In this document: piece after piece, positions 3 through 4,161 of the stretch
How the letters are laid out: each line of letters opens with the position of its first letter
Numbering within the stretch: the first letter of the stretch is position 1
Notes under the pieces: generated by a model
Database searches by the model: none
What the model was told of the DNA's origin: nothing
What the model saw: only the letters and a program-made list of their open reading frames with translations
Translations under genes and position numbers: made by a program
IMG/VR virus record: IMGVR_UViG_3300013837_000016
Reading direction: 5' to 3' (one strand)
From: a virus
Taxonomy: Duplodnaviria; Heunggongvirae; Uroviricota; Caudoviricetes
DNA: 4,161 nt

Positions 3-968
3 CCCCGTGACGAGGTTAAACCTGTACGGTTAGGGGAAATCATTACTGACTACACTGACACGCTTGACAGGCGTCTGAGGAACGGAGAAGAGTCAGATAC
101 CCTGAAGACCGGAATCGAAGAACTTGATGCCATCACCGGAGGGATGAACGCGGAAGACCTGGTGATAATCGCTGCTCGTCCTGGTATGGGGAAAACCGAA
201 CTGGCGCTGAAGATTGCCGAAGGCGTTGCAAGTCGCGTTATTCCTGGTTCTTACGTCCGGCGCGGAGTGTTGATTTTCTCGATGGAAATGAGCGCATTGC
301 AGATTGCAGAGCGAAGTATTGCCAACGCCGGGAGGATGTCGGTTAGCGTGCTGCGAAATCCTGCATCGATGGATGACGAGGGCTGGGCACGTGTTGCTAA
401 CGGCATGAGTCAGCTTGCAGATTTGGATGTATGGGTAGTCGATGCCTCGCGGTTATCGGTCGAAGAAATACGCTCAATCGCAGAACGGCACAAACAGGAA
501 AATCCAAACCTGTCACTCATCATGGCGGATTATCTTGGCCTGATTGAGAAGCCGAAAGCAGACCGCAACGACCTCGCAATTGCTCACATCTCAGGAAGCC
601 TTAAGGCGATGGCGAAAGACCTGAAAACGCCTGTTATCTCCCTGAGTCAGCTTTCGCGCGATGTTGAGAAGCGACCAAACAAACGCCCGACAAACGCAGA
701 TTTGCGTGATTCAGGAAGCATTGAACAGGACGCAGACTCAATCATCATGCTCTATCGGGAAGCAGTATATGACGAGAACAGTAGCGCCGCACCATTTGCT
801 GAAATCATTGTGACGAAAAACCGTTTTGGCTCGCTTGGTACGGTTTACCAGCGGTTCTGTAACGGACACTTTGTTGCATGTGACCAGGATGAAGCCAGAC
901 AGATTTGCACAGCATCAAATGCACCCGCTGCACGTGGCAGGCGATATGCACAAGGGGCTGACGTATGA
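3..968 (+). CDS. DnaB-family replicative DNA helicase (P22 gene 12-like), 5'-truncated at window edge
   Basis: Open frame runs from position 3 with no upstream stop to TGA at 966-968. The translation contains ...[37 protein letters not shown]..., which matches the DnaB C-terminal RecA-like domain: the TGG loop followed by a Walker A motif (AARPGMGKT). Downstream DxxG/SQLSRD-type motifs are typical of DnaB helicases. It is not lambda P-like. Confidence 0.88.
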
Positions 969-1040: not shown

Positions 1041-1247
1041 GTGGCTGAGTTAATTTTCTCTGCATTGAGGATTCTCGGTGCTATGTGGATGGTGTCGACG
1101 TTCATTGTGGTTGTCGGAAGTTTTGTCCGGTTGGTAGGCGAAGGTAAAGACCTGGTGGGTGTGCTTTTCGGTAGCATTTTCCTGTGGGTGATTATCGGTG
1201 TTATGCCTGTCGCTGTAGCAAAAATGGCGTGGCGTTTTGTTAGTTGA
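1041..1247 (+). CDS. small hydrophobic protein (68 aa, predicted two transmembrane helices), unknown function
   Basis: GTG start at 1041 preceded by a strong Shine-Dalgarno GGGGGAGAG (1026-1034); stop TGA at 1245-1247. The translation has two hydrophobic stretches (MWMVSTFIVVVGSFV and VLFGSIFLWVIIGVMPVAVA) separated by the charged loop GEGKD. It occupies the slot between tR2 and ninB. Confidence 0.5.
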   Translation: MAELIFSALRILGAMWMVSTFIVVVGSFVRLVGEGKDLVGVLFGSIFLWVIIGVMPVAVAKMAWRFVS

Positions 1248-1254
1248 GGTAACG

Positions 1255-1701
1255 ATGAAGCAAATATACATGCTTCGCAACGAAGCAATCAGAAACAATG
1301 TCATAGACGCAATACTCTCACTCCCCATCGACGACAAGTCACCTCACGAAGTCCACGTTAAAGAAGCCAAGCGGAGTAATCCTCAAAACCGCCTTATGTG
1401 GGCGTTATTGCAGGACGTATCGCGTCAGGTGCTTTGGCATGGAGAGAGACTTGCGCCGGAGGACTGGAAAGATCTGTTCACTGCCCTGTGGCTTAAGACC
1501 AAAAAAATGGAGCAAAGAAGTGCGCCTGGTATCGACGGTGGCGTTGTCATGCTTGGCGTGCGTACTAGCAAAATGCGAAAGGCCAACATGACTGAGCTTA
1601 TCGAAATCATGTTCTGGTTCGGCTCAGAGCGCAACGTGCGGTGGAGTGATGACTCCAGGCGAGAGTATGAATGGTCACAACGAAAAGGGAAGGCTGCATG
1701 A
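1255..1701 (+). CDS. ninB: NinB (Orf) recombination mediator protein
   Basis: ATG at 1255 with SD GAGG 6-9 nt upstream. The 148-aa product (MKQIYMLRNEAIRNN...NPQNRLMWALLQDVSRQVLWHGERL...[20 protein letters not shown]) matches lambda NinB/Orf in length and in conserved blocks (QNRxLWAxLxDVSRQVxWHG, KWSDE-like C-terminus). The six-frame ORF start at 1237 is an upstream in-frame codon lacking an SD. Confidence 0.9.
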   Translation: MKQIYMLRNEAIRNNVIDAILSLPIDDKSPHEVHVKEAKRSNPQNRLMWALLQDVSRQVLWHGERLAPEDWKDLFTALWLKTKKMEQRSAPGIDGGVVMLGVRTSKMRKANMTELIEIMFWFGSERNVRWSDDSRREYEWSQRKGKAA

Positions 1702-2225
1702 CTATCAAATCAAATACGCCATCACACGACAAGGACTGCTGGCAAACGCCGCTTTGGCTTTTTGATGCGCTGGATATTGAGTTTGGATTCTGGCTGGACT
1801 CGGCAGCGAGCGACAAAAATGCTCTGTGCGCTCACTGGCTAACTGAGGCCGACGACGCGCTAAATTCTGAGTGGATAAGCCACGGTGCAATCTGGAATAA
1901 CCCACCGTACAGCAATATCAGGCCGTGGGTGGAAAAAGCCGCTGAGCAGTGCATACAACAGCGACAGACGGTAGTTATGCTTGTGCCAGAGGATATGTCA
2001 GTCGGATGGTTCAGCAAGGCTCTGGAGAGTGTTGACGAAGTTCGCATCATCACTGATGGACGGATTAATTTTATCGAACCATCGACAGGGCTGGAGAAGA
2101 AGGGAAACAGCAAAGGCTCCATGCTGCTGATTTGGCGACCGTTCATCAGTCCTCGACGGATGTTTACTACCGTATCCAAAGCGGCATTGATGGCGATCGG
2201 GCAGGGCGTCAGGAGGGCGGCATGA
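1698..2225 (+). CDS. phage-type DNA N6-adenine methyltransferase (orphan; Dam-like phage family)
   Basis: ATG at 1698 overlaps the ninB stop (ATGA), with SD AAGGGAAGG upstream. The 175-aa product carries the catalytic motif IV NPPY (..[14 protein letters not shown]..) and an N-terminal CWQTPxxLF block typical of small phage N6-adenine methyltransferases. The six-frame ORF start at 1671 is an upstream in-frame codon. Confidence 0.75.
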
Positions 2226-2374
2226 GGCGACAGCGACGAAGTTTCACCGACATCATCTGCGAAAACTGCAAATACCTTCCAACGAAACGCTCCAGAAATA
2301 AACGCAAGCCAATCCCAAAAGAATCTGACGTAAAAACCTTCAATTACACGGCTCATCTGTGGGATATCCGGTGA
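2222..2374 (+). CDS. ninE: NinE protein
   Basis: ATG at 2222 overlaps the methyltransferase stop (ATGA), with SD AGGAGG 5 nt upstream. The 50-aa product [50 protein letters not shown] is near-identical to my recollection of lambdoid NinE. It was too short to appear as a separate ORF in the track, whose entry begins at 2132. Confidence 0.85.
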
Positions 2375-2400
2375 CTAAGACATCGTGCGAGGAAATGACA

Positions 2401-2760
2401 ATGGATTATTCACAGTTAAGTGATTTTGAAATTAACAAGCGAGTGGCAATTTGCTGTGGATTTGCTCCCGAAGATTGCGAAATCGCAAAGTTGGGAACAT
2501 CAATCGTTGGTGTTGAGTGGGATGACGAAACTGGTTATGCAATAAAAACGGTTGATTACTGTAAAAGCCCATCAGACGCAGAGCCGATTATCGTAGAGAA
2601 CAGAATTGGCATTATTCCAGCGCCAGAAAATGGATTATGGAAGGCAGCGCATAGAAAAGTTGGCAGTGATAGTACCCCATATCATATGAATCAAGATGAA
2701 AACCCACTCCGCGCTGCCATGATTGTCTTTCTCATGATGCAGGACGCCAATAATGCTTAG
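2401..2760 (+). CDS. acidic hypothetical nin-region protein (119 aa), unknown function
   Basis: ATG at 2401 with SD GAGG (2389-2392) 8 nt upstream; the ATG at 2395 abuts the SD, and the track's 2359 start overlaps ninE. Stop TAG at 2758-2760. I count 19 Asp/Glu against 10 Lys/Arg, giving a strongly acidic protein with 4 Cys. It has no lambda counterpart at this position; it may belong to a conserved phage DUF family, which I cannot confirm without a search. Confidence 0.6.
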   Translation: MDYSQLSDFEINKRVAICCGFAPEDCEIAKLGTSIVGVEWDDETGYAIKTVDYCKSPSDAEPIIVENRIGIIPAPENGLWKAAHRKVGSDSTPYHMNQDENPLRAAMIVFLMMQDANNA

Positions 2761-2929
2761 CCCATCCCAATCCCTTCAATACCAGAAAGAAAGCGTCGAG
2801 CGGGCTTTAACGTGCGCTAACTGCGGTCAGAAGCTGCATGTGCTGGAAGTTCACGTGTGCTCCGATTGCTGCGCAGAACTGATGAGCGATCCGAATAGCT
2901 CAATGTACGAGGAAGAAGACGATGGCTAA
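2753..2929 (+). CDS. ninF: NinF protein (58 aa, Cys-rich)
   Basis: Not in the ORF track (below the size cut-off). ATG at 2753 with SD AGGA 8 nt upstream; it overlaps the previous gene's stop by 8 nt. The translation [58 protein letters not shown] is near-identical to lambda NinF and contains CxxC...CxxCC. Stop TAA at 2927-2929. Confidence 0.85.
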
Positions 2930-3533
2930 ACCAGCGCGAAGACGATGTAAAAACGATGAATGCCGGGAATGGTTTCACCCTGCATTCGCTAATCAGTGGT
3001 GGTGCTCTCCAGAGTGTGGAACCAAAATAGCACTCGAACGACGAAGTAAAGAACGCGAAAAAGCGGAAAAAGCAGCAGAGAAGAAACGACGACGAGAGGA
3101 GCAGAAACAGAAAGATAAACTGAAGATTCGAAAACTCGCCTTAAAGCCCCGCAGTTACTGGATTAAACAAGCCCAACAAGCCGTAAACGCCTTCATCAGA
3201 GAAAGAGACCGCGACTTACCATGTATCTCGTGCGGAACGCTCACGTCTGCTCAGTGGGATGCTGGACATTACCGGACAACTGCTGCGGCACCTCAACTCC
3301 GATTTGATGAACGCAATATTCACAAGCAATGCGTGGTGTGCAACCAGCACAAAAGCGGAAATCTCGTTCCGTATCGCGTCGAACTGATTAGCCGCATCGG
3401 GCAGGAAGCAGTAGACGAAATCGAATCAAACCATAGCCGCCATCGCTGGACTGTCGAAGAGTGCAGGTCCATCAAGGCGGAGTATCAGCAGAAACTCAAA
3501 GACCTGAGAAATAGCAGAAGTGAGGCCGCATGA
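2922..3533 (+). CDS. ninG: NinG (Rap) recombination-associated structure-specific endonuclease
   Basis: ATG at 2922 overlaps the ninF 3' end by 8 nt, with SD GAGGAAGAAG upstream. The 203-aa product starts [33 protein letters not shown]..., has a lysine/glutamate-rich coiled segment and a C-terminal Cys/His cluster (CISCG...HYR...CVVCNQHK). Length and sequence match lambda NinG/Rap. Confidence 0.9.
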
Positions 3534-3736
3534 CGTTCTCAGTAAAAACCATTCCAGACATGCTTGTTGAAGCATACGGAAACCAGACAGAAGTAGCACG
3601 CAGACTGAAATGTAGTCGCGGTACGGTCAGAAAATACGTTGATGATAAAGACGGGAAAATGCACGCCATAGTCAACGACGTTCTCATGGTTCATCGCGGA
3701 TGGAGTGAAAGAGATGCGCTATTACGAAAAAATTGA
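3530..3736 (+). CDS. ninH: NinH, small Fis-like DNA-binding protein
   Basis: ATG at 3530 overlaps the ninG stop (ATGA). The 68-aa product [39 protein letters not shown]... is near-identical to lambda NinH and contains a helix-turn-helix-like segment ([18 protein letters not shown]). Confidence 0.9.
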
Positions 3737-4161
3737 TGGCAGCAAATACCGAAATATTTGGGTAGTTGGCGATCTGCACGGATGCTACACGAACCTGATG
3801 AAAAAACTGGAGACGATAGGATTCGACACCAAAAAAGACCTGCTTATCTCGGTTGGCGATTTGGTCGATCGCGGTACAGAGAACGTCGAATGTCTGGAAT
3901 TAATCACATTCCCCTGGTTCCGAGCTGTACGTGGAAACCATGAGCAAATGATGATTGATGGCTTATCAGAGCGTGGAAACGTCAATCACTGGCTGCTTAA
4001 TGGCGGTAGTTGGGTCTTTTATTTCGATTACGCCAAAGAAACCCTGGCAAAAACCTTTGCCCACAAAGCAGAAAAACTTCCATTAACACACAAAACGGGG
4101 GGCAAAAGAAAAAAACCGCCCCTTAACAACATCCCCGGGCCGCGGGGCCCCCCCCACCCCC
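3714..4161 (+). CDS. ninI: NinI-like Ser/Thr protein phosphatase (lambda PPase family), 3'-truncated; tail from about 4087 unreliable
   Basis: ATG at 3714 with SD GGAG 8 nt upstream, overlapping ninH by 23 nt. This frame is absent from the ORF track because no stop occurs before the window end. The translation [80 protein letters not shown]... carries the metallophosphoesterase signatures GDLHG, GDLVDRG and GNHE. After about 4087 the translation becomes implausible. Confidence 0.85.

Follow-up and report, generated by a model that had tools for sequence, protein, structure and literature searches.

The nin region studied here encodes a strongly acidic protein of 119 aa between ninE and ninF, and the question is whether this gene is a novel insertion that specifies a DNA mimic directed against host defence, or an established member of the region with another role. 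We analysed the whole 4,161-nucleotide stretch of phage DNA that contains it (the window), which comprises the replication and nin region of a lambdoid phage with all listed genes on the + strand (Table 1). The original prediction had described an acidic ORF with its own Shine-Dalgarno sequence, an 8-nt overlap with ninF and an operon shared with an adenine methyltransferase, and these descriptive points are all borne out. The product contains 19 acidic residues (10 Asp and 9 Glu) and 10 basic residues (6 Lys and 4 Arg), giving a net charge of -9 and a pI of 4.49. Its start codon lies 26 nt after the ninE stop codon (2372-2374) and is preceded by a GAGGAA element. Two other in-frame starts are available (ATG2395 and GTG2359); we took ATG2401 as the start because the homologues, and the annotation of Escherichia phage vB_EcoP-611R6 (ON470589), begin at MDYSQ. 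The stop codon (TAG, 2758-2760) lies beyond the ninF ATG at 2753, which creates the 8-nt overlap. The methyltransferase is a PF05869 protein, and a scan of 2100-3000 found nothing resembling a promoter or terminator, which places the gene inside one transcription unit; an Rfam scan gave no match in or around it. The gene would be co-transcribed with ninB, dam, ninE, ninF, ninG and ninH in the delayed-early rightward operon. From what is established for the nin regions of lambda and P22, we infer that it is non-essential and expressed with delayed-early timing.

Table 1. Features of the 4,161-nucleotide window and segments of the ninX gene. Identity values are mean pairwise identities within the NinX family.
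Feature	Coordinates	Strand	Remarks
DnaB-type helicase ORF, C-terminal part	144-968	+	
68-aa hydrophobic ORF	1041-1247	+	
NinB	1255-1701	+	
Dam-type N6-adenine methyltransferase	1671-2225	+	PF05869, E 9e-65
ninE, upstream neighbour of ninX	2222-2374	+	PF05322, E 4.9e-37
Shine-Dalgarno-like GAGGAA	2388-2393	+	Read from sequence, 7-9 nt before ATG2401
ninX (119 aa + stop)	2401-2760	+	Full-length PF10765 match; PHROG 444
Conserved N-terminal helix segment	2401-2448 (codons 1-16)	+	Identity 0.64
Variable cassette 1	2449-2553 (codons 17-51)	+	Beta-hairpin; net charge -5; identity 0.10
Conserved central segment, start of helix 2	2554-2592 (codons 52-64)	+	Identity 0.74
Variable cassette 2	2593-2700 (codons 65-100)	+	Three-stranded beta meander; net charge -1; identity 0.23
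Conserved C-terminal helix (NPLRAAMIVFLMM)	2701-2757 (codons 101-119)	+	Identity 0.81; pLDDT 97
ninF, downstream neighbour of ninX	2753-2929	+	PF05810, E 8.3e-14
NinG	2922-3533	+	
NinH	3530-3736	+	
NinI-type phosphatase, start	from 3714	+	

Several features of the surrounding DNA deserve mention in their own right. The dam start overlaps the end of ninB by 31 nt (1671-1701), and the TGA of dam shares the letters ATGA with the ninE start codon (2222-2225); tight gene packing of this sort is typical of nin regions (PMC8022706). Between the helicase gene and ninB, the ORF at 1041-1247 has a GTG start and encodes a strongly hydrophobic product with a pI of ~10. Its position is roughly that of ninA in P22, and ON470589 carries a 207-nt hypothetical CDS right after the helicase, with other ORFs between that CDS and ninB. 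The 58-aa NinF is itself acidic (net charge -8, pI 4.24) and displays a CxxC...CxxC zinc-ribbon-like pattern with a weak match to DZR_2. At the downstream edge of the window, the final ~75 bases (4087-4161) are rich in G/C homopolymers and end in ...ccccgggccgcggggccccccccaccccc. Beyond 4086 there are no further matches to other phages and the frame encoding the NinI phosphatase breaks down, so that this terminal piece looks like a read-end or assembly-end artefact and not biology.

By sequence, the gene between ninE and ninF is almost certainly ninX, a member of the NinX/DUF2591 family. In Pfam, the product matches PF10765 (Phage_P22_NinX, formerly DUF2591) over positions 1-114 of the 114 in the profile (E = 6.1e-22, 78.5 bits against a gathering score of 22.6). 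The product also matches PHROG 444, labelled as of unknown function (E = 1.2e-40), and its DNA is 99.7% identical to the CDS annotated as NinX in vB_EcoP-611R6. The family is large: one search returned 1404 matches in a 90%-identity collection and another returned 1872 clusters at 50% identity, which indicates a real gene and not a chance ORF. Nearly all matches are stand-alone proteins of 100-140 aa. Among 5426 complete E. coli genomes, ~1100 match its DNA over at least part of its length; in 70 the match is near-full-length, to a "phage protein NinX family protein". One apparent relative, a 2234-aa protein (P0228), scored E = 1e-24 with the NinX profile because 20 weak repeats were added up; it is a cadherin-like tandem-repeat protein and was rejected as a false positive.

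The family motifs are all present in the window protein, namely Y-x3-SDFEIN-x2-V at the N-terminus, DYCNNP-DAWPII in the centre and NPLRAAMIVFLMM at the C-terminus, with a single departure at E61. Codon 61 (2581-2583) encodes Glu where 94% of family representatives have the Trp of the DAWPII motif; the resulting DAEPI variant recurs in a minority of relatives.

The original prediction had also taken the gene to be an extra one inserted between ninE and ninF. We take lambda to have ninE directly followed by ninF, with no ninX, and by this comparison the gene is indeed extra. It is nevertheless no novel insertion, since P22 has a gene in the same slot. In P22 (NC_002371), ninE (35324-35500), ninX (35497-35835) and ninF (35828-36004) follow one another, and P22 NinX (NP_059615) occupies the same ninE-ninX-ninF position with the same 8-nt ninF overlap as in the window. 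The two proteins share N- and C-terminal motifs (MDYSQLSDFEINKRVA... and ...PLRAAMIVFL.MQDANNA) and align with E = 5e-22; they are only 42% identical overall because both internal cassettes, described below, are of different types. In a genome paper on phage L (PMC8022706), ninX appears among the ten P22 nin genes, whose functions are described as largely unknown, and is absent from the list of lambda nin genes. The P22 slot, the family matches and this published gene list together show that ninX, although additional by comparison with lambda, is a standard component of P22-type nin regions. It is an accessory gene of the nin region in P22-type lambdoid phages and was already known.

An AlphaFold2 model of the window protein, built with a 41-sequence alignment, is confident (pLDDT 91.7, pTM 0.86). 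It has helices at residues 8-18, 57-66 and 102-118 and strands at 36-40, 47-51, 69-74, 79-84 and 95-99, and depicts NinX as a small soluble alpha/beta/alpha sandwich in which the three conserved helices would form the scaffold. The only strong fold matches among solved structures are 4PUP/4QYB from Burkholderia cenocepacia and 1R7L, a Bacillus cereus 'phage protein', with 4QYB and 1R7L as the top Foldseek hits; the predicted sandwich is superimposable on 1R7L. All of these proteins are uncharacterised, have 15-18% sequence identity to NinX and were not detected by NinX sequence profiles. 1R7L is, we presume, the type structure of Pfam PF18066 (Phage_ABA_S). Sequence searches for PF18066 (Phage ABA sandwich) gave no match for the window protein and weak matches (E = 0.02) for 2 of the 144 cluster representatives. 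Judged by its modelled fold, NinX would belong to a phage alpha/beta/alpha sandwich superfamily; as 4PUP/4QYB and 1R7L are themselves uncharacterised, the likeness adds nothing on mechanism. A search of the BFVD viral structures returned uncharacterised phage proteins only, and PDB sequence searches with the single protein and with two family profiles produced chance-level matches only (E above 0.3). The window protein had no match in an NCBIfam scan, and no sequence match to catalytic families or solved enzymes was found across Pfam, NCBIfam and the PDB.

Conservation along NinX is sharply bimodal, with mean pairwise identities of 0.64-0.81 in the helix segments versus 0.10-0.23 in the beta segments. 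Among 144 cluster representatives, residues Y3, S7, D8, E10, I11, N12 and V15 of the N-terminal segment are conserved in at least 90%, and the same degree of conservation holds for N101 to I108 of the C-terminal helix. In the model, S7/D8/E10, N56-P57-x-D59 and N101-P102 fall at expected helix N-cap positions, suggesting that most conserved polar residues are probably structural rather than catalytic. The two beta segments behave as exchangeable units: the cassette-1 type of the window is found with 6 cassette-2 types, and its cassette-2 type with 12 cassette-1 types. When an allele carrying a different cassette 2 was modelled, AlphaFold returned the same scaffold and cassette 1 but gave the new cassette low confidence (pLDDT 45-78).

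Comparison of the DNA with three phages locates the boundaries of these units. Codons 1-16 are ~100% identical to both P22 and HK544. Cassette 1 is identical to HK544 and 37-43% identical to P22, and cassette 2 is ~87-100% identical to phage Bas82, 37-53% to HK544 and 27-43% to P22; over codons 101-119, identity to P22 and HK544 is 87-97%. Followed along the window, HK544 is ~100% identical from ninE to ~nt 2590, 37-53% identical at 2612-2700, and 90-100% identical from ~2700 into ninF. P22 diverges from ~2440 to ~2700, apart from a partial island of similarity over the helix-2 segment, and Bas82 shows near-identity only at 2582-2700, its match starting at ~nt 2575-2582. On these alignments the central segment (2554-2592) is also a recombination joint, at which the HK544 match ends and the Bas82 match begins. 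Read in this way, ninX is an intragenic mosaic: each of its two hypervariable beta cassettes is exchanged separately among phages, at recombination joints in conserved helix-coding DNA.

We then considered the genomic setting of NinX in 80 related viral loci. An upstream ORF could be scored in 76 of these, 36 of which have NinE in that position; immediately downstream, NinF is found in 48 of the 80. The other Pfam-matched immediate neighbours (TraR-type zinc finger, DUF4222, DUF551, DUF1367 and Exc-like proteins) are small nin-type accessory genes, and no recurring defence or anti-defence partner was found among the immediate neighbours other than NinE and NinF. Only 16 of the 80 loci have a Dam homologue within 4 kb. 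A functional link between NinX and the methylase was rejected for this reason, and the operon that the two genes share in the window is a mosaic coincidence. Relatives of NinX/DUF2591 also occur in 252 plasmid records, mostly non-mobilizable and of 100-115 kb, from Yersinia pestis (pMT1), Salmonella, Enterobacter and Citrobacter; we assume that these are probably SSU5-like phage-plasmids. The plasmid types with such relatives include pMT1 and pHCM2. On Y. pestis pMT1 (L084, locus 4995-5366), the NinX gene comes after genes for a 5'-3' exonuclease, a recombinase and an SPFH protein, and in phage Bas82 it lies between those for a DNA polymerase and a DNA methyltransferase. The recurrent setting of NinX is an early DNA-metabolism and accessory module.

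What NinX does must be argued from these data, as our search of the literature on NinX, DUF2591 and the nin region found genome-annotation mentions only and no functional study, nor any paper linking NinX or DUF2591 to anti-defence. The original prediction put forward a candidate DNA mimic or anti-defence factor, with Ocr and ArdA as examples. An anti-restriction protein of this kind would present an acidic, B-DNA-like surface and so sequester Type I restriction-modification enzymes or other defence proteins that bind DNA. The net charge of -9 and pI of 4.5, a family that is mostly acidic, and a small early gene in an accessory region near a Dam-type methylase are all consistent with such a role, and T7 Ocr (gp0.3) is like NinX in size (117 versus 119 aa), in being an early phage gene and in its acidic pI. 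The resemblance failed for each feature that we tested, namely acid density, charge conservation, sequence and fold, and we regard a DNA mimic as extremely improbable. Ocr, as given in its GenBank record, is 29% acidic with a net charge of -28, or -0.239 per residue, whereas NinX is 16% acidic with -9, or -0.076 per residue; even the adjoining NinF, at -0.138 per residue (-8 in 58 aa), is more densely charged than NinX. Net charge ranges from -16 to +1 in 143 cluster representatives of the family (mean -7.3; mean -10 among 112 closer relatives), and P22 NinX, at -2, is nearly neutral where the window protein has -9. Family members thus tend to be acidic, but this is no fixed property. Conservation of acidic residues is confined to D8, E10, D52, D59, E66 and E115, and the remaining charge is scattered diffusely over the variable cassettes. 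The Pfam search found no Ocr or ArdA domain, and the confident sandwich model has no known DNA mimic among its top structural matches and no fold match to Ocr. A PADLOC scan, which covers defence systems only, gave no match for the window protein, and the scarcity of a nearby methylase across the loci also argues against this role.

Other roles can be weighed on the same evidence. NinX may be an accessory factor of phage DNA replication or recombination that binds and tunes NinB/Orf, NinG/Rap, an exonuclease-annealase pair, SSB or a helicase. We consider this unlikely: co-location with early genes counts for little, direct nucleic-acid binding is hardly to be expected of an acidic protein, the similarity to dsRBD is marginal, and only 44 of the 80 loci contain NinB and only 30 NinG. 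The phage proteins Tad1, Tad2 and Acb2, which are likewise small and stand-alone, can serve as sponges for signals, and by this precedent NinX could bind a small molecule or immune signal, or be a small enzyme, through the polar cluster Y3, N12, C54 and R104. These four residues are 97-99% conserved in 143 cluster representatives, and the near-invariant C54, N12 and R104 might be a functional site, which would point to a conserved and not a variable target. Most other conserved polar residues fit helix N-cap positions, and no likeness to known sponges or enzymes emerged from the Pfam, PDB sequence and fold searches, making a sponge or enzyme highly improbable. It is also conceivable that ninX is a dispensable passenger ORF with no adaptive function of its own, retained chiefly for its conserved ends, which would act as linkers for recombination within the mosaic nin region. 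Lambda is without it, its cassettes are extremely variable and its end DNA is 96-98% identical across phages with differing middles. We nonetheless find a passenger improbable, given the intact reading frame in more than 1800 clusters at 50% identity, the confidently predicted fold and the protein-level conservation of the scaffold in distant phages and phage-plasmids without lambdoid flanking genes.

The proposal that we prefer, tentatively and with considerable doubt, is that NinX is a stoichiometric protein-binding module. It draws on the conserved scaffold with variable, mildly acidic modules, the stand-alone size and the lack of a catalytic signature, as well as the location among accessory early genes and the exchange of cassettes across temperate phages, other phages and phage-plasmids. 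As a protein binder, NinX would use its conserved helices to hold the fold, and its variable, mildly acidic sheet would contact a variable partner, most plausibly a host protein. Against this, the hypervariability of the cassettes could stem from relaxed constraint and not from diversifying selection. A more specific version, which we think unlikely as it stands, makes NinX a modular anti-defence or host-factor inhibitor consisting of a three-helix scaffold with two swappable beta cassettes. Recombination in helix-coding DNA would then reshuffle the cassettes among temperate phages, virulent phages and phage-plasmids, and this reshuffling would retarget NinX to other variants of a host defence or host protein. 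Taken jointly, the ninX identity, the anatomy of scaffold and cassettes and the protein-binding mechanism offer the best explanation of the locus, to which we give clearly less than an even chance.

Our result mainly corrects a label, in that the supposed insertion turns out to be an ordinary gene of the nin region, widely annotated and belonging to a very common phage protein family without assigned function. Only the cassette architecture merits further pursuit, and it provides a concrete handle for experiments; if the cassettes set target specificity, NinX would be a compact case of domain-level shuffling in phage-host conflict. As a protein-binding module, NinX would be a host-takeover or anti-defence modulator in the broad sense, rather than a DNA mimic like Ocr or ArdA. 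T7 Gp1.2, which inhibits the host dGTPase, illustrates how a small phage protein can block an enzyme of its host.
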